Part shown: positions 1 to 29,009 of the stretch, one piece after another
How positions within the stretch are numbered: position 1 is the stretch's first letter
How the letters are laid out: each line of letters opens with the position of its first letter
Virus record (IMG/VR): IMGVR_UViG_2778261083_000005
Reading direction: 5' to 3' (one strand)
Origin: a virus
Lineage: Duplodnaviria; Heunggongvirae; Uroviricota; Caudoviricetes
Length of the DNA stretch: 36,199 nucleotides
The notes under the pieces: generated by a model
Database searches by the model: none
The model's input: only the letters and a program-made list of their open reading frames with translations
Told to the model about the DNA's origin: nothing
Program-made: the position numbers and the translations under genes

Positions 1-258
1 ATGCAAACCGTTATTTTTGGTCGTTCGGGTTGCCCTTACTGTGTGCGTGCAAAAGATCTGGCTGAGAAATTGAGCAATGAACGCGATGATTTTCAGTATC
101 AGTATGTAGATATTCGTGCGGAAGGGATCACTAAAGAAGATCTACAACAAAAGGCAGGTAAACCCGTAGAAACCGTGCCGCAGATTTTTGTCGATCAGCA
201 ACATATCGGCGGCTATACCGATTTTGCTGCATGGGTGAAAGAAAATCTGGACGCCTGA
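1..258 (+). CDS. grxA: Glutaredoxin 1
   Basis: 85-aa ORF with ATG at 1 and TGA at 256-258; CPYC active-site motif (GCPYCVRAK); sequence recognised as E. coli GrxA. Confidence 0.9.
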   Translation: MQTVIFGRSGCPYCVRAKDLAEKLSNERDDFQYQYVDIRAEGITKEDLQQKAGKPVETVPQIFVDQQHIGGYTDFAAWVKENLDA

Positions 259-267
259 TCGTCTGAC

Positions 268-300
268 AAGCCCTCGCGTTGAGGGCTTTACTGATTTTTT
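268..300. terminator. Bidirectional intrinsic terminator between convergent grxA and ybjM
   Basis: Inverted repeat aagccctc(268-275)/gagggctt(281-288) followed by a T-run to ~300; lies between the two convergent stop codons. Confidence 0.5.
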
Positions 301-665
301 CTGTGCTGTGGTTTAAACAAACTACTGATAAATAAGAAACACAGTGCCCCCAGCGCACACCAGAACACCGCGCTTAGTAACCATGCCAGCTCTTGCCAGA
401 ATGAGCGCGTCGGTGAAAAAAACAGCCGCATAATGAGCATTGAACAGGGTGCCGCCAGCATTGCGCCAAATAGAGGTTTCAGGACTTCTCTACGCTGTGA
501 AAAGAAACTGGCAACTGCTCCAGGAAGAATGAAAAATAGCAAGCCGATTTCAGGATGCCCGGCAGCCCGAAAAGCGCCTTTCATGTGCGTCGCCAGAAAA
601 AGGCACACCACAATGAAGAGGACAAAACAGCAGATTGCCCCCGCCCAACGTTGTTTATGTTTCAC
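288..665 (-). CDS. ybjM: Inner membrane protein YbjM
   Basis: 125-aa hydrophobic ORF recognised as YbjM; start codon at 663-665 is GTG. Confidence 0.8.
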   Translation of the reverse strand: MKHKQRWAGAICCFVLFIVVCLFLATHMKGAFRAAGHPEIGLLFFILPGAVASFFSQRREVLKPLFGAMLAAPCSMLIMRLFFSPTRSFWQELAWLLSAVFWCALGALCFLFISSLFKPQHRKNQ

Positions 666-934
666 TCGTTCCTCCTGACACTGCGTCTATCGAACACATT
701 TTTCGCCAGTGTGGCGTTCAGTAAGATAAAGCCGCTTCGCATTCCATGCTAATATAGGCCAACGCAATTCATATAGCCGTTGATACCTAATGTGATTACA
801 CTAGTAAAATATATTGTTACTTTACTATCGTTTAGGTGCGCTGAATGAATCTGCGCCCTGAATTCTGGTAAAAAACATTATCGTAAATTACCATTTCTTT
901 CAACAGCTTACTAGTAAACAAGAAGTTAGCCTCC

Positions 935-2620
935 GTGAATATAAACGTCGCCGAATTGTTAAATGGGAATTACATTCTGTTATTATTTGTGGTCCTCGCG
1001 CTTGGGCTATGTCTCGGAAAGTTACGACTTGGTTCGATCCAACTGGGTAATTCCATTGGCGTTTTAGTCGTATCGCTGTTATTAGGCCAACAACATTTCA
1101 GCATTAACACCGATGCGCTTAATCTTGGCTTTATGCTGTTTATTTTCTGCGTCGGGGTCGAAGCCGGACCGAACTTTTTTTCCATTTTTTTTCGCGATGG
1201 GAAAAATTACCTAATGTTAGCACTGGTGATGGTTGGCAGTGCGCTGGTGATCGCCTTAGGGTTAGGTAAGCTGTTTGGCTGGGATATTGGCCTGACGGCC
1301 GGTATGTTAGCAGGCTCTATGACGTCGACACCGGTTCTGGTCGGTGCTGGCGATACACTGCGTCATTTCGGCATGGAAAGCAGGCAGCTCTCACTGGCAC
1401 TGGATAATCTGAGCCTCGGGTATGCCTTAACCTATTTAATCGGTCTGGTGAGTTTGATTGTTGGTGCGCGTTACTTGCCGAAATTGCAGCATCAGGACTT
1501 ACAGACCAGCGCCCAGCAAATCGCCCGCGAACGTGGCCTGGACACTGATGCCAACCGTAAGGTTTATTTACCGGTGATCCGCGCCTATCGCGTCGGCCCG
1601 GAGCTGGTGGCCTGGACCGACGGCAAAAATCTGCGTGAACTGGGTATTTATCGACAAACCGGCTGCTACATTGAACGTATTCGACGTAACGGGATTCTGG
1701 CAAATCCAGACGGTGATGCCGTGCTACAAATGGGCGATGAAATAGCGTTGGTAGGCTATCCCGACGCCCATGCCCGACTCGATCCCAGCTTCCGTAACGG
1801 TAAAGAAGTTTTCGATCGTGACCTTCTCGACATGCGTATCGTCACTGAAGAAGTGGTCGTTAAAAACCATAACGCTGTAGGTAAACGTCTCGCACAACTG
1901 AAGTTGACCGATCACGGTTGCTTCCTTAACCGCGTCATTCGTAGCCAGATTGAGATGCCGATAGATGACAACGTCGTGCTTAACAAAGGTGACGTTTTAC
2001 AAGTCAGCGGTGATGCCCGTCGCGTAAAAACCATCGCCGATCGCATCGGCTTTATCTCGATTCACAGCCAGGTCACTGACCTGCTGGCATTTTGCGCCTT
2101 CTTTGTTATTGGGCTGATGATCGGGATGATCACCTTCCAGTTCAGCACATTCAGTTTCGGCATGGGGAACGCTGCCGGGTTGTTATTCGCCGGAATTATG
2201 CTGGGCTTTATGCGTGCTAACCACCCGACCTTCGGTTACATTCCGCAAGGTGCATTAAGCATGGTGAAAGAGTTCGGCTTGATGGTGTTTATGGCAGGCG
2301 TTGGTCTGAGCGCCGGTAGCGGTATTAATAACGGCCTGGGCGCGATTGGCGGTCAGATGTTGATTGCCGGATTAATTGTCAGTCTTGTGCCCGTGGTTAT
2401 CTGTTTCTTGTTCGGTGCTTATGTATTGCGAATGAACCGCGCACTGTTGTTCGGCGCAATGATGGGCGCACGCACCTGCGCGCCGGCAATGGAGATCATC
2501 AGTGATACAGCTCGCAGTAACATCCCTGCGCTGGGCTATGCGGGCACCTACGCAATCGCCAACGTCCTGCTGACGCTGGCAGGGACAATCATCGTCATGG
2601 TATGGCCAGGATTAGGATAA
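935..2620 (+). CDS. ybjL: Putative AAE-family transporter YbjL
   Basis: 561-aa ORF beginning [20 protein letters not shown] (GTG start at 935); two membrane domains flanking a soluble central region; recognised as E. coli YbjL. Confidence 0.9.
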
Positions 2621-2742
2621 AACTGAAGTTGCCCTGAAAATGAAATTTTTTTGCACAACCGCAGAACTTTTCCGCAGGGCATCAGTCTTAATTAGTGCCA
2701 CTGCTTTTCTTTGATGTCCCCATTTTGTGGAGCCCATCAACC

Positions 2743-2777
2743 CCGCCATTTCGGTTCAAGGTTGATGGGTTTTTTGT
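2743..2777 (+). terminator. Rho-independent terminator of ybjL
   Basis: Stem cccatcaacc / ggttgatggg followed by TTTTTTGTTG; the last clearly host-like feature before the prophage. Confidence 0.6.
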
Positions 2778-2855
2778 TGTCTGAAATTTATGCCTTTTAA
2801 AATCATGATGTTAGAAGCACTGCTTTTTAACGATGGCGACAAAATGGCGGCAGCG

Positions 2856-3074
2856 TCAAAGAGAGAGCGCCACCTGTCCTGATTTCATTGGATGCGGCTG
2901 AACCGGATTTGACTCTTTTGGCGTTGCAATCGAACGAACAAAAGTTTCATGGGTAACAAAAGTATGGCTGCAGTTAATGTTCTGGCACTGGTTGTAACGC
3001 TCTTTGGTCAATGAAGATACCTGAAAACTGCTGCGAGTATGGGCGGCACTTCCACACAGTGGGCAAATCATCAT
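2856..3074 (-). CDS. ogr: Late-gene transcriptional activator, Ogr/B family zinc finger
   Basis: 72 aa from ATG at 3074 (GGGGAGAG SD upstream); CPLC...C...C motif (MICPLCGSAAH...YNQCQNINCSHTF); sits downstream of gene D as in P2/186. Confidence 0.8.
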   Translation of the reverse strand: MMICPLCGSAAHTRSSFQVSSLTKERYNQCQNINCSHTFVTHETFVRSIATPKESNPVQPHPMKSGQVALSL

Positions 3075-3164
3075 TTTTCGAGCTCTCCCCATTTTTGCTA
3101 AATTCACAATAATGATACCGTATTATTCCATTTTGCAAACTTAAAAGTTCTCCATTGCGAAGAA

Positions 3165-4265
3165 TCATTCCATTTCGAAATCATCAATCTTCACTTCGAG
3201 TTCAATACTGGTTGTAAAACCGTTATCCGGGCTGACAGTATGTGTCAGAGTCGTAATGGTCCATTCCGCATCATCTATCGGCTGTTTAAAGCCACTGACT
3301 TTCACTGGCATTTCCGTGTAGAGATCTGCCCGCCCTTCCGCCAGTTGTAGCGAGAATGACGCAACGCCGCGTTGCAGGCGTTCCCACTGCATTTTTGCCG
3401 CTCGTTCGGCGTTGCTCCGGTTGGCATAAGTGCGATTAAGTACCAGCACGTTTTCATCCGTCCCCACCAGGTAATCGCCCTGCTTCGCTTCCGGCTCTTT
3501 CTTCTGCTTCTTAGTCCTGCGCTTACGCTTCACCGTAGTGCTTTCTTTCTTCGCGGGTTCGCGGGTATGCAACCAGCTGGCAATTACCCCCGTGTAAGCT
3601 CCGCGATCTGCCAGGGTAAAGCGGTGACTGTCGCCGTCCTTACGTGTGATAGTGATCACCGGTAGTGGTTTACCGCTGGCGCTTTTACCCTGTCCCTGTC
3701 GGATGAATAACAGATTGCCATTTTTCACCGACGCAATAGCACCGTACTGGCGCGCCAACCGCATCAGAAAACTGCCGTCACTCTCATTGGTCTGGTCTAT
3801 ATGTTCCACGGGTTTATCTGACAGGTCTTTACCCAATGCCATCTTCAGTTTGTGCCGCGCAGCTATTTCCTTCACCACTTCCCCAACGGTGGTCTTGTGC
3901 CACGACTTTTCACGGCGGGTATTCAGCGTTTCACGAAAATCAGCACTTCGCGCCCGGATAGTCAGGCGATCCGGTGCGCCAGTGTGTTCAATCTCGTCCA
4001 CCGTGAATGCCCCTTTCGGGAAAAGCGGCTGCCCCTTCCAGCCCAGCGCCAGCGTAATAACCGCACCACGACGCGGCAGCACGATTTTTCCATCGGCGTC
4101 GTCCAGTTCCAGATCAAGCTGGTCTGCTTCAAAGCCCCGGTTATCCGTCAGCGTCAGACTCATCAGGCGGTTGTCCAGCACTGTGGTGATATCCTTGCCT
4201 TCAATACTGATGCTGAATGCCGGAGTTTTGTTGCCTTTGTTAAGCAGTTCAGAGCTGAAATTCAC
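3165..4265 (-). CDS. D: Tail protein gpD
   Basis: 366 aa; conserved GKDIT...LTLTDNRGFEADQLDLELDDADG block matching P2 gpD; GTG start overlapping the U stop (GTGA). Confidence 0.85.
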   Translation of the reverse strand: MNFSSELLNKGNKTPAFSISIEGKDITTVLDNRLMSLTLTDNRGFEADQLDLELDDADGKIVLPRRGAVITLALGWKGQPLFPKGAFTVDEIEHTGAPDRLTIRARSADFRETLNTRREKSWHKTTVGEVVKEIAARHKLKMALGKDLSDKPVEHIDQTNESDGSFLMRLARQYGAIASVKNGNLLFIRQGQGKSASGKPLPVITITRKDGDSHRFTLADRGAYTGVIASWLHTREPAKKESTTVKRKRRTKKQKKEPEAKQGDYLVGTDENVLVLNRTYANRSNAERAAKMQWERLQRGVASFSLQLAEGRADLYTEMPVKVSGFKQPIDDAEWTITTLTHTVSPDNGFTTSIELEVKIDDFEME

Positions 4266-22294: not shown

Positions 22295-24061
22295 ATGAAC
22301 ACCACACTGACACCCGCAGATCTCGATCCCCGTCGGCAGGCCATGCTGCTGTACTTTCAGGGATACCGCGTAGCCCGCATTGCTGAAATGCTGGGCGAGA
22401 AAGTTGCAACCGTTCACAGCTGGAAAAAACGCGACAAGTGGGGTGACTATGGGCCGCTGGATCAGATGCAGCTCACCACTGCCGCACGCTACTGCCAGCT
22501 CATTATGAAGGAGCACAAAGAAGGGAAAGATTTCAAAGAGATTGACCTGCTGGCGCGCCAGTCTGAGCGCCACGCGCGGATCGGCAAGTTTAACAATGGC
22601 GGCAACGAAGCCGACTTAAACCCTAACGTCGCCAACCGCAACAAAGGCCCGCGCCGTCAGCCGGAAAAAAATGTCTTCACCGATGAACAGATTGAGAAGC
22701 TGGAAGAAATCTTCCATTCCTCCATGTTCAACTACCAGCGCCACTGGTGGGAAGCCGGAAAAACCAACCGCATCCGCAACCTGCTGAAGTCACGCCAGAT
22801 CGGCGCGACCTTTTACTTTGCCCGTGAAGCCCTGATTGACGCCCTGCTTACCGGACGTAACCAGATTTTCCTTTCCGCCAGTAAGGCACAGGCCCACGTC
22901 TTTAAACAGTACATCATCGACTTCGCCAAAGAAGTGGAGGTGGAGCTGAAAGGCGATCCGATGGTGCTTCCCAACGGGGCCACGCTTTACTTCCTCGGCA
23001 CCAATGCCCGCACGGCCCAGAGTTACCACGGCAACCTGTATCTGGATGAATATTTCTGGATACCGAAATTCCAGGAACTGCGCAAAGTGGCTTCCGGTAT
23101 GGCTATTCACAAAAAATGGCGACAAACCTATTTTTCCACGCCATCCAGCCTGACACACAGTGCTTATCCGTTCTGGTCCGGTGCGCTGTTTAACCGTGGG
23201 CGCAACAAAGCCGATAAGGTGGACATCGACCTGTCCCACAACAATCTGGCCCCCGGCCTGCTGTGCGCAGACGGGCAATACCGCCAGATAGTCACCGTGG
23301 AAGATGCGGTGCGCGGCGGCTGTAACCTGTTCGACCTCGACCAGCTACGCATGGAGTACAGCCCGGACGAATATCAGAACCTGTTGATGTGCGAGTTCGT
23401 GGACGATCTCGCGTCCGTGTTCCCGCTCAGCGAACTGCAGGCGTGCATGGTGGACAGCTGGGAAGTCTGGACCGACTTTCATGCACTGGCCCTGCGCCCG
23501 TTTGGCTGGCGCGAGGTGTGGATCGGTTATGACCCGGCAAAAGGTACGCAGAACGGCGACAGCGCCGGATGCGTGGTGGTGGCACCGCCAGCCGTGCCAG
23601 GCGGTAAGTTTCGCATTCTTGAGCGTCACCAGTGGCGCGGGATGGACTTCCGCGCCCAGGCTGATGCAATCAAAAAACTGACCGAGCAGTACAACGTGAC
23701 CTATATCGGCATCGACTCGACGGGTGTCGGTCACGGGGTTTATGAGAACGTGAAAGCGTTTTTTCCAGCCGTCCGGGAGTTTGTCTACAACCCCAACGTT
23801 AAAAACGCCCTGGTACTCAAGGCCTACGACATTATCAGCCACCGCCGTCTGGAGTTTGACGCCGGGCACACCGACATTGCGCAGTCATTCATGGCAATCC
23901 GTCGCGCCACCACCGCCAGCGGCAACCGCCCGACCTATGAAGCCAGCCGCAGCGAAGAAGCCAGCCACGCCGATCTGGCCTGGGCAACGATGCACGCATT
24001 GTTTAACGAACCGCTGCAGGGCGAATCCGCCAATACCAGCAATATTGTGGAGATTTTTTGA
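22295..24061 (+). CDS. P: Terminase large subunit gpP
   Basis: 588 aa; ATG at 22295; ATPase/nuclease terminase-like; stop overlaps the Q start (TGATG). Confidence 0.9.
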   Translation: MNTTLTPADLDPRRQAMLLYFQGYRVARIAEMLGEKVATVHSWKKRDKWGDYGPLDQMQLTTAARYCQLIMKEHKEGKDFKEIDLLARQSERHARIGKFNNGGNEADLNPNVANRNKGPRRQPEKNVFTDEQIEKLEEIFHSSMFNYQRHWWEAGKTNRIRNLLKSRQIGATFYFAREALIDALLTGRNQIFLSASKAQAHVFKQYIIDFAKEVEVELKGDPMVLPNGATLYFLGTNARTAQSYHGNLYLDEYFWIPKFQELRKVASGMAIHKKWRQTYFSTPSSLTHSAYPFWSGALFNRGRNKADKVDIDLSHNNLAPGLLCADGQYRQIVTVEDAVRGGCNLFDLDQLRMEYSPDEYQNLLMCEFVDDLASVFPLSELQACMVDSWEVWTDFHALALRPFGWREVWIGYDPAKGTQNGDSAGCVVVAPPAVPGGKFRILERHQWRGMDFRAQADAIKKLTEQYNVTYIGIDSTGVGHGVYENVKAFFPAVREFVYNPNVKNALVLKAYDIISHRRLEFDAGHTDIAQSFMAIRRATTASGNRPTYEASRSEEASHADLAWATMHALFNEPLQGESANTSNIVEIF

Positions 24062-25095
24062 TGGGAAAGAGTAAGAAGAACCGCGCTGCGGCGACGAAAC
24101 AGATCCAGCATAAAAGCCAGACTTCAGCCGAAGCATTCAGCTTCGGTGATCCCGTTCCTGTTCTGGACCGCCGCGAACTGCTGGACTATGTGGAATGCGT
24201 ACAGATGGATCGTTGGTATGAGCCGCCTGTGAGTTTCGACGGACTGGCGCGAACCTTCCGCGCCGCCGTGCATCACAGCTCACCGATTGCAGTGAAGTGC
24301 AACATTCTGACCAGCACCTACATCCCTCACCCGCTGCTCAGCCAGCAGGCTTTTTCGCGTTTTGTACAGGACTATCTGGTTTTTGGTAACGCCTACCTGG
24401 AGAAACGCACGAACCGCTTCGGTGAAGTTATCGCCCTTGAGCCCGCACTGGCAAAATACACCCGACGCGGGTTAGACCTGGATACCTACTGGTTTGTGCA
24501 ATACGGCATGACTACGCAGCCGTATCAGTTCACGCAAGGCAACATTTTTCATCTGATGGAACCGGACATCAACCAGGAGATCTACGGCCTGCCCGGTTAT
24601 CTTTCTGCCATTCCGTCAGCTCTGCTCAACGAGTCCGCCACGCTGTTCCGCCGCAAGTATTACATTAACGGCAGTCATGCAGGCTTCATCATGTACATGA
24701 CCGATGCAGCGCAGAACCAGGAGGATGTGAACAACCTCCGCAATGCGATGAAAAGCGCCAAAGGTCCTGGTAACTTCCGTAACCTGTTTATGTACTCGCC
24801 TAACGGTAAAAAGGACGGGCTTCAGATTATCCCGTTGTCAGAAGTGGCGGCGAAGGATGAGTTCCTGAATATCAAGAACGTGAGCCGGGACGACATGATG
24901 GCGGCCCATCGTGTGCCGCCACAAATGATGGGGATAATGCCTAATAATGTCGGGGGGTTTGGGGATGTGGAGAAGGCCAGTCGCGTATTTGTACGTAATG
25001 AATTAACGCCCTTGCAAAAAAGGCTACAAGAGCTGAACGACTGGCTGGGCGAAGAAGTGATTAAATTTACGCCCTATATTCTTTCAGAAGAATAA
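24061..25095 (+). CDS. Q: Portal protein gpQ
   Basis: 344 aa from ATG at 24061 (the ORF-track start at 24058 is TTG); size matches P2 gpQ. Confidence 0.9.
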   Translation: MGKSKKNRAAATKQIQHKSQTSAEAFSFGDPVPVLDRRELLDYVECVQMDRWYEPPVSFDGLARTFRAAVHHSSPIAVKCNILTSTYIPHPLLSQQAFSRFVQDYLVFGNAYLEKRTNRFGEVIALEPALAKYTRRGLDLDTYWFVQYGMTTQPYQFTQGNIFHLMEPDINQEIYGLPGYLSAIPSALLNESATLFRRKYYINGSHAGFIMYMTDAAQNQEDVNNLRNAMKSAKGPGNFRNLFMYSPNGKKDGLQIIPLSEVAAKDEFLNIKNVSRDDMMAAHRVPPQMMGIMPNNVGGFGDVEKASRVFVRNELTPLQKRLQELNDWLGEEVIKFTPYILSEE

Positions 25096-25103
25096 TTCCG
25101 AAC

Positions 25104-25802
25104 TTATTTGTTTCTTCTTTGTTCACGCCTTGTCTTGGCTTCGATAAGGCGTTGAGGTTCAGTGTAAAGCCGTTCTAAAAAAAGATAGGTAAAATCTTCA
25201 AGATCCTCAGCAGCAGCTTTATCCAAAATACCTTCATGCGCTCCATCATTTCCGTCATCTTTAACGCATTCAGCTAGTTCCCTTAAAGCTTCAGGCAGTA
25301 GATGATTATCAAATAACCACTCCATTCTCAACCCTAGGCTTCTCCTTATTTTTTGCGCAGGCCCTTGCTCCCCATCAGGAAGAAGTCCTTTTGTGGCATA
25401 ATCAAGGCAAAGCCTAAACATGGTTGCTGCTGCATTATAACAACCTATAGCCAAACATTTCGCCCCTTCCTCATATGCACTATTGATATGCTCAGGTAAG
25501 AACTCTGGTGGCTCCTCTACTGCTAAGTCTGCCGGTGATATAGGCCTAACAACCTCTGCAACTTCCTTTAAGCCGAATATTCCACTTTCCCAATTATAGC
25601 TATCTAAAGTTTTATTTTTCGTTAAAGGTCTGCAAAGAAACATTGTCGTTTTATGACACTCTCGGCAAACACAATAGACCTCGTACTCGTATGTTTTACC
25701 CCCGCCCAATGCATTGTAAACCCTAGTGCAATTCAGCCCATTAACATCAAACGCTATTTTTTGTGATCCACATCGTGGACAGTCATCCACTAACATAACC
25801 AT
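25104..25802 (-). CDS. Zinc-ribbon protein with C-terminal DUF4145-like (predicted HEPN-type) domain; candidate abortive-infection/defence protein
   Basis: 232 aa; strong GGGAGGAG SD upstream of ATG at 25800-25802; N-terminal CPRC...CVCRECH zinc ribbon; C-terminal ...ALRELAECVKDDGNDGAHEG... resembling the R...GN.gAH motif of DUF4145; convergent with Q across an 8-bp gap. Confidence 0.7.
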   Translation of the reverse strand: MVMLVDDCPRCGSQKIAFDVNGLNCTRVYNALGGGKTYEYEVYCVCRECHKTTMFLCRPLTKNKTLDSYNWESGIFGLKEVAEVVRPISPADLAVEEPPEFLPEHINSAYEEGAKCLAIGCYNAAATMFRLCLDYATKGLLPDGEQGPAQKIRRSLGLRMEWLFDNHLLPEALRELAECVKDDGNDGAHEGILDKAAAEDLEDFTYLFLERLYTEPQRLIEAKTRREQRRNK

Positions 25803-25912
25803 GTCAATTACTCCTCCCTATGAAAAAAATGAGTTGAAAAATTGAATATTCACGACTTAAAAAGCTAGCCTATTTAACACCATAATTTCATTAATTCAAC
25901 CATGAGCGCGCG

Positions 25913-25931
25913 CTCGTATCCCCGCCACGCC
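25913..25931 (-). other. Candidate cos site (cohesive-end sequence)
   Basis: Minus-strand GGCGTGGCGGGGATACGAG matches the GGCG(A/T)GGCGGGGA core of P2/186 cohesive ends as I recall them (13 of 19 to 186); adjacent 12-bp palindrome gagcgcgcgctc at 25904-25915. Confidence 0.45.
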
Positions 25932-26104: not shown

Positions 26105-26151
26105 AACTCTCGTTTTTATAAAGCACAAAGTCCGCTTTGAGCGAAGCGGAC
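26105..26151 (-). terminator. Candidate intrinsic terminator downstream of the KAP NTPase gene
   Basis: Inverted repeat gtccgctt(26130-26137)/aagcggac(26144-26151); on the minus strand it is followed by TTTGTGCTTTATAAAAAC. Confidence 0.4.
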
Positions 26152-26216: not shown

Positions 26217-28109
26217 TTAATCAGTTCCCTCAGTAAAGAATTTGATTGCGCTAGTTAGTACATAGTCAATAAAAAACTTTACGTGAAAAACCTGAAAGGA
26301 GTTATTGGCTGCGTTTTGAGTGAAATCTACAGCTATCTCTTTTAGGTTAATCAACCAGTTGTATTCTTCGGTCAGTCTGGTTCTAGCATCCCCATCAGAA
26401 TAACGATTCCGCAAGCTAAATGCCAGTTTCCTCATGAGGACTGGGTCAAGTTTCCTATAGCTTTCAATGAAAACTTCAGGAGGAACCAAGTGTAAAAAAG
26501 GCACGTTATGAAGATTTAACTGCCTATTATTAGAATGACTCAATTCAGATACGAACGATAAGTTTCCCCTTTGCAACTCATCGCTGAACTGCAACGCAAA
26601 TTCCGGAATTGATTCATCAAACCGTTTCTTCTTCGCTATCTCAATATGCTCAATAATGAGTTTGAATTCATCGCTATCCCTGTCAAGAAAACCAAAGCCA
26701 CGCCATGCCCTTAATTCGTTATAATGCGTTTGCGCATATTCCTTATGTATATCTTCAGCTCTAAGTCTATTATAATAATTATTTATATTCTGTTTTGTCT
26801 CATTTATGAGATCATGAACATCATCTGTTGTTAGACCTTCTTTCGCCATGTCCAGCAAAATACTCGCGGTCATCAGGAGTTCACCTAAGGAAGTGATCTT
26901 ACCTGAAAATAGATTATCCTTGGCAATGGCGTACTGCTCATTAAGCATAGTTTCATTAAGTTCTCGATAGTTCCACAAATACTCCCATGCTTGGGCATCG
27001 GTGCTTCTAAAAAATCGCGTAATATCCAACTGAGCGAGAAGTTCACTCGTTACCTTTCCATCACAGATTAGCTCCCTCCAGTACGCACCATCCAGTAACT
27101 TCTCGGTTAATACAGGAGATGAATATTTCTCGGCGATCATGTCATACTTAGTTTTGGTACGCTCTTTACCTAAAAACATACCATAATTAACATTGCTGAT
27201 TGAATCGAAATCCTCGTAGTTAAGGTTCCCTCCCCGGTACTCTATCGAGAAAATTAACAACTGCTGGAAAAATACCCTCATAAAATCGTCGTTGCTGACA
27301 TATTTATTTCCCAAAAGGGAAATGATGCGTTGTACATCAAGAAAGAACTGCCTCAAGTGTCTTAGATTATTATATTTCGCCGACACATAGATGTCTTCTA
27401 TGGCCTGCATATCTTCTTTAAATATATTAGCAACGTGTAAACTGCTAATTACGCCCAAAAAAACATTACAAGCACTATGTAAATCTGACGTTACTTCAAA
27501 TGTTTTACCAACAAGCTTTTCTTTTGTTCTCATATATTCGCTGCTAGATTTCTCATCATCATTATTTATTCGCTTTTCTCTATTGATTATTTCTTCTTCA
27601 TTGGCAACCAAGATCGCTTTGTATCCGTTTACTTCTACAAAGTGGTTTATATATCCAAATAAAATTGGTAAATCTATACCAGCTCTCTCGATATCATCAA
27701 AGACCAGCACAAAACCATCTGGTTTTCTACTAAAATCGTTAAGATTAATGGTGGGAACATTGGTATTGACATCAACGTCAGATTTATTATCGCCATTGAG
27801 ATCGATCTTGAAAGTAGCCTTAAGCGTATTTTTTAGTACATTTGCACCAAAGATAAGGGCTTTGTTTGATAGGACAGGATGAAGTTGACGATAGAACTCA
27901 TCTTCAATCTGCTTAATAGAGTTGACGCCATACAAACTCACTTTTAGAAATTTAAACTCTGAATTCTTCTGCTTATATTCTTCAAGAACTTGTTCAATGA
28001 ACCAAGTTTTACCTGATCCCCAAGCACCTTTAAGCATAATGGCGTATTGAGGTTCAGTTGTAAGGCTAAGGTAATATTCTATATAGTCTTTGATGTACGT
28101 ATTGTTCAT
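26217..28109 (-). CDS. KAP-family P-loop NTPase (PifA-like); candidate phage-exclusion protein
   Basis: ATG at 28107-28109 preferred (ORF-track start at 28160 is TTG); Walker A GAWGSGKT and Walker B-like VLVFDDIER in the N-terminal third; long helical C-terminal region; AT-rich; between tum/DinI module and cos. Confidence 0.75.
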   Translation of the reverse strand: MNNTYIKDYIEYYLSLTTEPQYAIMLKGAWGSGKTWFIEQVLEEYKQKNSEFKFLKVSLYGVNSIKQIEDEFYRQLHPVLSNKALIFGANVLKNTLKATFKIDLNGDNKSDVDVNTNVPTINLNDFSRKPDGFVLVFDDIERAGIDLPILFGYINHFVEVNGYKAILVANEEEIINREKRINNDDEKSSSEYMRTKEKLVGKTFEVTSDLHSACNVFLGVISSLHVANIFKEDMQAIEDIYVSAKYNNLRHLRQFFLDVQRIISLLGNKYVSNDDFMRVFFQQLLIFSIEYRGGNLNYEDFDSISNVNYGMFLGKERTKTKYDMIAEKYSSPVLTEKLLDGAYWRELICDGKVTSELLAQLDITRFFRSTDAQAWEYLWNYRELNETMLNEQYAIAKDNLFSGKITSLGELLMTASILLDMAKEGLTTDDVHDLINETKQNINNYYNRLRAEDIHKEYAQTHYNELRAWRGFGFLDRDSDEFKLIIEHIEIAKKKRFDESIPEFALQFSDELQRGNLSFVSELSHSNNRQLNLHNVPFLHLVPPEVFIESYRKLDPVLMRKLAFSLRNRYSDGDARTRLTEEYNWLINLKEIAVDFTQNAANNSFQVFHVKFFIDYVLTSAIKFFTEGTD

Positions 28110-28423: not shown

Positions 28424-28657
28424 TTAATGCAGCCAGCTGTCGTCTTCCCACACCTTCTGCATAATTTTCATCACTTGTTTTCTTTCTTCGTCCAGTTGCA
28501 GTCCGGTCAGTTCCACACCGTTAGAGCTACCTTTGCGGATACGAATTACCGTTTTGGGATACAGGGGGCGCAGATTGCGGTAAAGCTCGGATTCAAGGGC
28601 GTCCAGTGTAGACTGGCTAATCTTCTGCTCTTTATCGATCATTATTTCAATGCGCAT
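28424..28657 (-). CDS. DinI-family protein (SOS-inducible; Tum/DinI-like)
   Basis: 77 aa from ATG at 28655-28657 with GAGGTGA SD; MRIEIMIDK...LDALESEL...KQVMKIMQKVWEDDSWL aligns by eye with E. coli DinI. Confidence 0.75.
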   Translation of the reverse strand: MRIEIMIDKEQKISQSTLDALESELYRNLRPLYPKTVIRIRKGSSNGVELTGLQLDEERKQVMKIMQKVWEDDSWLH

Positions 28658-28667
28658 AAAAGTCACC

Positions 28668-28856
28668 TCAGCTGATGACATCCATTGAGCGGTTGTATTC
28701 GTGGCTTCTGATTTTTGCCATGAGTTCATCAGTCAATTCAGAAACCCACTGCAGAGCCAGCCCCTTCTCTTCATCACTACACTCACTAGCCGCTACAAGC
28801 TTAAGAAAAAAATCAATGCGCTGGAGCTTCAAAGACTCCAAAAAATAGTCCTGCAT
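28668..28856 (-). CDS. Small hypothetical protein (62 aa), first gene of the LexA-controlled operon; possible antirepressor component
   Basis: ATG at 28854-28856 with AGGAGG SD 6 nt upstream; stop immediately precedes the DinI-like RBS; downstream of the LexA box. Confidence 0.55.
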   Translation of the reverse strand: MQDYFLESLKLQRIDFFLKLVAASECSDEEKGLALQWVSELTDELMAKIRSHEYNRSMDVIS

Positions 28857-28897
28857 CTTTCCTCCTATGACACCACACGCAATGCTGTACGTATAAC

Positions 28898-28917
28898 CAC
28901 TGTTTATATTTACAGTA
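28898..28917 (-). promoter_or_regulatory. LexA box (SOS operator) overlapping the -10 of the promoter for the small ORF/DinI-like operon
   Basis: Minus-strand TACTGTAAATATAAACAGTG = CTGT-N8-ACAG with AT-rich spacer; TTTACA (-35-like) and TATACT (-10-like) around it. Confidence 0.6.
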
Positions 28918-29009
28918 TATAATAATCTTACTGATGTAAAACGTTTTTTTACGTTCATCAGCCTGATATGCCTGGTATTATTAAGAGCACGAATTGTTAA
29001 CCCGCGTAA

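Follow-up and report, generated by a model that had tools for sequence, protein, structure and literature searches.

Among described defence systems the closest to the gene considered here is PD-T7-4, which came from a functional selection in E. coli and was described as a 'Zn finger-HEPN' protein (PMC9519451); it has since been renamed RAZR and solved for the protein of E. coli UMB1727 (Zhang et al., Nature 2026, PMC13017515; PDB 9Y9C, 9Y6U). RAZR possesses an N-terminal Cys4 zinc finger and a C-terminal DUF4145/HEPN RNase domain with the catalytic residues R146 and H154, alanine substitutions of which abolish defence (PMC13017515). On its own the protein is non-toxic and forms linear oligomers, but it assembles into a 24-mer ring around the portal rings of phages T7, T3 and SECphi18, and likewise around the 24-mer Erf-like Gp77 of SECphi27, the phage rings that it binds measuring about 170 Å; once assembled, it cleaves ssRNA non-specifically, which results in abortive infection (PMC13017515). 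The zinc-finger domain sets which phages are sensed (PMC13017515), with a trigger-binding surface formed by R29, Y31, R35, T41 and E43, and the linker that follows it is functionally important. Homologues of PD-T7-4 are reported to overlap an integrase gene in many cases (PMC9519451).

Several other defence proteins share parts of this layout. DS-38, which is described as a validated E. coli defence protein, also combines a HEPN domain and a zinc finger, of which only the HEPN domain aligns structurally with PD-T7-4 (doi 10.1101/2025.01.08.631726). BxaP (PMC10799925), Ishtar (doi 10.64898/2026.07.06.735840) and the HEPN-MNT pairs resemble the protein described below in having a DUF4145 or HEPN effector in a defence context, but differ from it in their other partner domains (HEAT-like, or a C-terminal beta/alpha domain) or in a separate MNT antitoxin gene. 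As for the HEPN domain itself, an Arg...His catalytic motif is kept in about 80% of DUF4145 members (PMC3710099), and it is not obligatory for membership in DUF4145.

The window analysed here, a stretch of DNA of 36,199 nucleotides, is by its gene map an E. coli P2-like prophage of the Fels-2/186 type. On its plus strand it carries the capsid scaffold gene, terminase P (22295..24061) and portal Q (24061..25095); after the portal gene the minus strand carries an open reading frame at 25104..25802, the cos region, a KAP NTPase, DinI and the replication gene A. The features that delimit this open reading frame are the following.

25104..25802, minus strand: complete coding sequence of the RAZR-like zinc-ribbon plus DUF4145/HEPN protein; an open reading frame of 232 aa with an ATG start.
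24061..25095, plus strand: portal gene (gpQ homologue), the convergent neighbour that defines the slot and lies outside the system; an open reading frame labelled portal in homologous loci.
25811..25819, minus strand: ribosome-binding site AGGGAGGAG, read from the sequence, with the ATG 8 nt downstream.
About 25913..25931, minus strand: cos cohesive-end homologue GGCGTGGCGGGGATACGAG, recognised by its sequence and invariant in six prophages.

The product of the portal gene is 61% identical to P2 gpQ, and its stop at 25095 leaves a convergent gap of only 8 bp (25096..25103), in which a consensus scan found no terminator-like site; the scan likewise found none from the portal gene up to the cos region. 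The cos homologue lies about 110 bp upstream of the ATG, and both this ORF-free stretch and the gap on the portal side leave the gene with no partner open reading frame at its flanks. The same interval of P2 comprises cosL (1..19; GGCGAGGCGGGGAAAGCAC, to be compared with GGCGTGGCGGGGATACGAG in the window), the annotated rho-independent terminator tQ (160..181) and Q (187..1221). An annotated counterpart is gene 1 of the Escherichia phage Cartapus, whose product shows 99.6% protein identity and which immediately follows the annotated cos and precedes the portal gene. The GC content of the gene is 41.8%, whereas the portal gene has 52%, the range for portal and terminase being 52-57%. An Rfam search returned the host RybB as its sole match, far from the locus. 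The ORF map and the scan confirm that 25104..25802 is a real gene and that the original prediction was correct in all its structural statements, namely a 232-aa gene with a strong ribosome-binding site, convergent with Q across 8 bp with no terminator between them; its further remark that P2 has no gene between Q and cos also holds, as tQ alone is found there.

The gpA-gpQ interval next to cos is a published anti-phage hotspot (PMC9122126, PMC9519451, PMC13586616), and Table S5A of Rousset et al. 2022 lists 'DUF4145' proteins in it, including WP_000245245 (PMC9122126), which is the LF82/Cartapus allele of the window protein. With replication gene A on one side and portal gene Q on the other, the gene is a neighbour of cos in a stretch whose content varies across related prophages, and it shares this interval and its variability with the P2 hotspot cargo old and tin (PMC9122126, PMC9519451). 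Unlike old, tin and most other cargo, which are on the A side, it is on the portal side of cos; it is a low-GC 'moron' inserted there within a known hotspot. Across 5426 complete E. coli genomes it was recovered in 46, always as a single copy and always on the chromosome; a related portal end or cos region is present in about 1280 of them, a distribution like that of cargo. Eight E. coli loci were inspected, and in each the gene is convergent with the portal gene at 3-8 bp from its stop, a spacing that is kept across alleles only 69-88% identical in protein, and a Serratia P2-like prophage has a homologue in the same slot with a gap of 32 bp. A literature search found no experimental report of an anti-phage test of this family.

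The protein divides into three segments, whose boundaries on the DNA are given below together with the predicted active-site motif.

25626..25802, minus strand: Cys4 zinc ribbon, residues 1-59 (C8-x2-C11...C46-x2-C49), the presumed sensor; defined by invariant cysteines and AlphaFold2 beta-strands.
25515..25625, minus strand: hypervariable linker or insert, residues 60-96, with 22% mean pairwise identity and ending in a conserved ...PAD...PPE.LP.
25158..25514, minus strand: DUF4145-type HEPN domain, residues 97-215, which includes the Pfam DUF4145 match.
25236..25262, minus strand: motif K181-D-D-G-N185-D-G-A-H189, the predicted active-site loop, aligned on RAZR R146-IVGN-QAV-H154.

Profile searches recovered Pfam DUF4145 (PF13643; HEPN superfamily, clan CL0291) with 30.3 bits against a gathering cut-off of 23.1, residues 114-203 being matched to positions 4-82 of the 88 of the model, and an end-to-end match to PHROG 1305 (phrog_1305; E 9e-53), which bears the label 'DNA binding protein'; RefSeq names a 99% identical gene 'DUF4145 domain-containing protein'. 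The NCBIfam search with the protein gave no match, and a search of a viral structure library gave nothing informative. In the AlphaFold2 model (overall pLDDT 83) residues 3-59 form four beta-strands (pLDDT 76-92), an additional strand is formed by residues 82-88, and residues 104-231 make up a helical domain with the all-alpha fold of the HEPN superfamily; the sole low-confidence segment is the motif-bearing loop 184-190 (pLDDT <50). Across the broad family as well as in an alignment of 26 homologues no substitution is seen at the four cysteines C8, C11, C46 and C49, and R130, R159, K181, N185 and H189 are likewise invariant in that alignment. The mean pairwise identity is highest in the HEPN part, at 68%, against 41% for the zinc ribbon and 22% for residues 60-96, and the size of this family amounts to 1,817 clusters at 50% identity with E <= 1e-3, 220 of them with E <= 1e-30.

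The N-terminal Cys4 zinc ribbon and the C-terminal DUF4145/HEPN region that the original prediction had read from the sequence are accordingly borne out, the former by the invariant cysteines and the latter by the profile score above the gathering cut-off and the helical domain of the model, and the profile and fold searches that it had proposed as a check gave the support sought. Its candidate R...H residues need to be corrected to K181 and H189: the arginine of 'LRELAE', R174, is not conserved among homologues, and the conserved catalytic-type motif takes the form K181-x3-N185-x3-H189. In the close subfamily the first residue of this motif is a lysine in 118 of 120 proteins; the more distant phage homologues have an arginine there, and 132 distant cluster representatives with the motif show R in 75, K in 46 and Q in 5. 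The exchange between arginine and lysine with retention of a basic residue makes this look like a predicted active site that has been maintained rather than one that has decayed.

The relationship to RAZR emerged from comparisons of differing depth. PADLOC returned a single weak match, to PD-T7-4 (E 1.2e-6), in which the window protein scores 26.1 bits as against 337-339 for RAZR-family proteins, that is, remote homology rather than a match at the level of a family member; with BLASTP it is 24% identical over 201 residues to a representative that is itself 96% identical to RAZR. Searches of PDB sequences with the single protein and with the close-family profile found no match, and a broad profile of its distant relatives matched the RAZR chain 9y9c_OA (E 7.9e-6) with K181 placed on R146 and H189 on H154. 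For profile-profile comparison the RAZR family was retrieved with the aligned RAZR fragment and then itself aligned. With the broad alignment hhalign gave a probability of 97.5% (E 5.6e-12) over window residues 101-224 only, which comprise the end of the linker and the HEPN domain, while the close-family profile gave 7% against the RAZR profile because the close-family alignment is low in diversity. No alignment of the zinc ribbon with that of RAZR was obtained, the profile-profile match covering linker and HEPN alone, and a zinc finger homologous to that of RAZR and bearing its trigger-binding surface was not found. Residues 89-103, which straddle the C-terminal end of the linker, align with the RAZR linker IPAAGNVELPNPDMP, and the order of secondary structure elements is the same in the models of both proteins, the RAZR model, built from 20 close homologues, being of low confidence (pLDDT 65) and used for the order of elements alone.

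These comparisons argue that the HEPN domain is robustly homologous to that of RAZR. Both proteins consist of one chain of about 220-230 aa in which a Cys4 zinc ribbon precedes a DUF4145-type HEPN domain, both have a basic-x3-N-x3-H motif at the same aligned position, and both are carried on mobile elements. In both, too, variation is greatest in the zinc ribbon (for the RAZR family the pairwise identity is 46% for the zinc finger and 88% for the HEPN domain), a pattern of variable sensor and conserved effector that has been tied to specificity in RAZR (PMC13017515). The differences are as follows: the window protein has Lys181 where RAZR has the catalytic Arg146, with the equivalent of H154 present as H189; in its family about 20 additional hypervariable residues separate the last strand of the zinc ribbon from the conserved '...PAD....PPE.LP', the segment that matches the RAZR linker; its C-terminal tail is shorter and basic; and, unlike PD-T7-4 with its reported integrase overlap, its gene adjoins the portal gene of a P2-like prophage. 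Judged from sequence, then, it is a protein of the same architecture as RAZR that belongs to a different family, because the HEPN domains are homologous, the zinc ribbons cannot be aligned, and the scores against the PD-T7-4 model are so far apart.

We consider it fairly likely that this prophage gene specifies a RAZR-type anti-phage protein made up of a single polypeptide and predicted to be an abortive-infection RNase. By analogy with RAZR, the variable N-terminal Cys4 zinc ribbon would be the sensor and the conserved DUF4145-type HEPN domain the RNase effector, with K181, N185 and H189 at the positions of the R146/H154 motif of RAZR. The protein would stay inactive until its zinc ribbons are bound by a protein of an infecting phage and the HEPN dimers are thereby positioned; the likeliest trigger would be a large ring, for example a foreign portal or an Erf-like recombinase, and the activated protein would cut RNA non-specifically, stopping translation and aborting the infection. 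That it is an RNase, what triggers it, that a ring templates its activation and that the infection aborts are all predictions by this analogy. Weighing on the other side are the 24% identity to RAZR, the score of 26 bits, the unaligned zinc ribbons, the lysine in place of arginine, the low-confidence loop and the prophage's own portal ring, to which a portal sensor would have to be blind.

As the sensor domains cannot be aligned, the trigger could differ from those of RAZR. It is conceivable, although we consider it rather unlikely, that the same HEPN RNase defence effector is activated without a ring as template, either by another trigger (for example nucleic acid, or a phage protein that forms no ring) or as a simple dimer. 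The restriction of the profile-level alignment to the HEPN part would suit such a difference in activation, as would the extra stretch of about 20 residues, hypervariable at 22% identity. A parallel is offered by DS-38, which, compared by description alone, has the same HEPN-only relation to PD-T7-4 as the window protein, differs from PD-T7-4 in its zinc finger and has been suggested to act by a distinct mechanism (doi 10.1101/2025.01.08.631726). Nevertheless, the order of secondary structure elements and the linker preceding the HEPN domain resemble those of RAZR, the variable-sensor and conserved-effector pattern is common to both, and no positive pointer to another trigger was found.

The PHROG label raises the alternative that this is no nuclease toxin but a HEPN protein without catalysis, which would regulate by binding DNA or RNA or would serve the phage as an accessory factor near cos. 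We regard this as improbable: no test behind the label 'DNA binding protein' was found, N185 and H189 are invariant, and a basic residue opens the motif in almost all cases (R in 75 and K in 46 of 132), which looks like a retained active site. The absence of the gene from P2 and from most related prophages implies that it is not needed for packaging, and it has homologues outside phages as well as a low GC content as in cargo.

Expression in a lysogen could be followed in the published RNA-seq values for the LF82 prophages (supplementary table of the LF82 prophage study), in which the gene is CARTA_1/LF82_788 (2758544..2759242), an allele that differs from the window protein by one residue. 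The values, as log2(fpkm+5), are these.

CARTA_1, LB, stationary phase: 4.65 and 4.71.
CARTA_1, bacteria alone (B1, B6): 7.0-7.6.
CARTA_1, inside macrophages (MB1, MB6): 9.2-9.6.
Adjacent LF82 portal gene, all conditions: 2.45-3.07, the floor being 2.32.

Because CARTA_1 is expressed while the portal gene remains near background, transcription of this near-identical allele in the lysogen does not depend on the late operon, which is what a moron would be expected to show. Neighbouring genes of the early strand, including DinI, are also up in macrophages in the same table, and part of the macrophage rise of CARTA_1 may be read-through from the early operon across cos. From the LF82 values we infer that a promoter of its own drives the gene in the lysogen, for which the region upstream of the ribosome-binding site would be the place.

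25820..25912, minus strand: putative promoter-bearing intergenic region, which includes the palindrome TGAATATTCA; tentative -35-like TTGAAT at 25894..25899 and -10-like TTAAAT at 25872..25877.

The proposed -35 and -10 elements are tentative, since no site on the strand of the gene passed the consensus scan for promoters; a TTGAAT...TGGT.T.AA block is partly kept in diverged alleles. The 10-bp perfect palindrome in this region, which had been put forward as a possible operator, is indeed present at 25843..25852, but that role was rejected on its frequency and missing conservation: the window has 37 perfect 10-bp palindromes versus 34 expected from shuffles, such a palindrome arises in 13% of shuffled copies of the AT-rich intergenic region of 111 bp, and this one is lost in the diverged alleles.

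The same expression values bear on the reading that the RNase serves the lytic cycle of the phage itself or counter-defence, for instance in shutting off host mRNA, rather than the protection of the lysogen. That the gene is phage-encoded, lies on the strand of the early operon and belongs to a cos-proximal block, DinI included, that is up in macrophages would fit such a use. It is transcribed, however, in LB-grown lysogens while the structural genes are silent, it is dispensable in most relatives, and it has homologues in non-phage contexts; moreover it is convergent with late P-Q transcription, which would oppose it. We therefore hold a lytic role to be very improbable.

Beyond the window the gene is combined with a variety of neighbours. 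The cargo on the A side of cos is as follows in the prophages with the gene.

Window and strain H22: the KAP NTPase.
LF82 and TW10598: two small hypothetical genes.
E6: a 433-aa hypothetical protein.
L3_E36: a DUF2971 protein.
E7476: two hypothetical genes.
E41: nothing.
Serratia: HicAB.

The reverse is seen in strain LR-50, where the same KAP gene is accompanied by another gene, of 98 aa, in the portal-side slot, and in strain 22-250 this slot is empty. Relatives in Pseudomonas adjoin an integrase at the edge of another element, and one relative stands alone in a Nitrospira chromosome. As the A-side cargo varies, the KAP gene occurs without it and the slot can be empty, the gene is an autonomous single-gene module and not a partner of the KAP NTPase. 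In the window and in H22 the two genes share a strand and are separated by about 400 bp, with cos in between, and the KAP protein matches the PADLOC candidate PDC-S49. The cooperation with that P-loop NTPase (26217..28109) which the original prediction had considered possible, as two components of one system, is nevertheless scarcely credible any longer and was rejected on comparative context, which largely refutes it: the gene is found with at least six other sets of neighbours and alone, and KAP is found also without the gene. A type II toxin-antitoxin pair of the HEPN-MNT kind finds no counterpart either, there being no adjacent minimal nucleotidyltransferase gene at the locus.

The fixed position next to the portal gene deserves a separate consideration under the preferred reading of a RAZR-type RNase. 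A sensor of portals would have to ignore the portal ring of its own prophage. One could speculate, doubtful as we hold it to be, that a sensor of portal or other phage rings is kept joined to the phage's own portal gene and that the junction is a built-in solution to self/non-self discrimination for a Lys-type HEPN RNase. The junction of 3-8 bp and the loss of tQ could then keep a 'safe' pair of sensor and portal linked, and late P-Q transcription could run antisense through the sensor gene at the time when the phage's own portal rings are made. Since tQ is replaced and no terminator-like site precedes the cos region, antisense P-Q transcripts would be expected through the whole gene. Separately, co-variation of portal and sensor was considered and dropped: the portals of the carriers differ mainly in the N-terminal 40 residues, and these differences do not track the sensor in any interpretable manner.

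Thus, in conclusion, the gene at 25104..25802 is a probable RAZR-like single-gene abortive-infection RNase, and it is largely explained by what is already known, namely the hotspot, the architecture of its domains and a relative whose mechanism has been solved. The novelty is modest, and consists in a distinct, very large sister family with a different zinc ribbon and a Lys-type motif, and in its fixed portal-adjacent position in P2-like prophages. If active, it would place next to RAZR another large group of defence proteins that join a zinc ribbon to HEPN, with about 1,800 clusters at 50% identity. With its different sensor domain and its lysine in place of the catalytic arginine, the family would help to find out which traits of RAZR-type activation hold in general, and its position raises the question of how a prophage with a possible portal sensor avoids triggering itself. 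For the defence annotation of P2-like prophages it is a gene to be added, which current models report as 'DUF4145' or as a weak match to PD-T7-4.

The narrow slot on the portal side of cos, which in the window holds the DUF4145 gene, is variable in its own right, as was observed on comparing E. coli LR-50, E. coli 22-250 and P2. It is occupied by a 98-aa hypothetical gene in LR-50 (WP_000859244, positions 2930..3226 of locus L020), lacks a gene in 22-250, and in P2 contains no gene but only the terminator tQ. The other features of the window considered here are:

2700..2778, +: RybB sRNA gene (Rfam RF00110, 105 bits)
25125..25152: 10-bp inverted repeat, ACGCCTTGTC / GATAAGGCGT, with an 8-nt loop, within the DUF4145 coding sequence at its 3' end
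26130..26151: terminator-like hairpin, next after the KAP NTPase gene
26217..28109, -: KAP-family P-loop NTPase gene (Pfam KAP_NTPase, E 4e-22)
28424..28729, -: DinI-family gene (Pfam DinI, E 1e-22)
28668..28958, -: small hypothetical ORF

The inverted repeat lies near the convergent junction of the DUF4145 and portal genes and is without a T-run. On the A side of cos, the KAP NTPase matched the PADLOC candidate system PDC-S49 (E 2e-160), and its gene is a separate candidate defense gene; LR-50 possesses this KAP NTPase gene without the DUF4145 gene. The DinI-family gene, whose RefSeq version is shorter (77 aa), and the small ORF occupy the interval that separates the cargo from replication gene A, and were retained in nearly all related prophages inspected. 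The RybB gene is a marker of host chromosome next to one end of the prophage.

When the window was compared with other prophages carrying the DUF4145 gene (L007-L010), the first ~40 residues of the portal (window 24061..24180) showed only 45-55% identity among portals that are otherwise 90-98% identical; the terminases of the carriers show 95-97% identity throughout.

Further proteins combining a zinc ribbon with DUF4145 were recovered in other phages:

L012, 94..783: gene 1 of the actinophage Gordonia phage Meyran, a distant homologue (27% identity)
L002, 3040..3714: gp20 of Shigella phage POCJ13, a third such protein (25% identity)

Meyran gene 1, too, is the first gene past the cohesive end, and the terminase and portal genes follow immediately downstream, a parallel position in an unrelated phage. 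The gp20-type protein, annotated as a 'DNA binding protein', is carried by lambdoid/Stx phages (POCJ13, Stx phage 75/02 and PhiR5_2 / PhiR12_3) and displays the canonical R-x3-N-x3-H motif; its gene is flanked by a RelE/ParE-type TA pair on one side and a Ren-like exclusion gene on the other.

In the LF82 prophage Cartapus, transcripts of the DUF4145 gene rise by ~5 log2 units inside macrophages (S1 Table, PMC9928086), as do those of the adjoining genes near cos and on the early strand (DinI, small ORFs; PMC9928086), and the portal and terminase transcripts stay at background (S1 Table, PMC9928086). This pattern suggests that in macrophages the early operon of Cartapus is partially activated without expression of the late genes.
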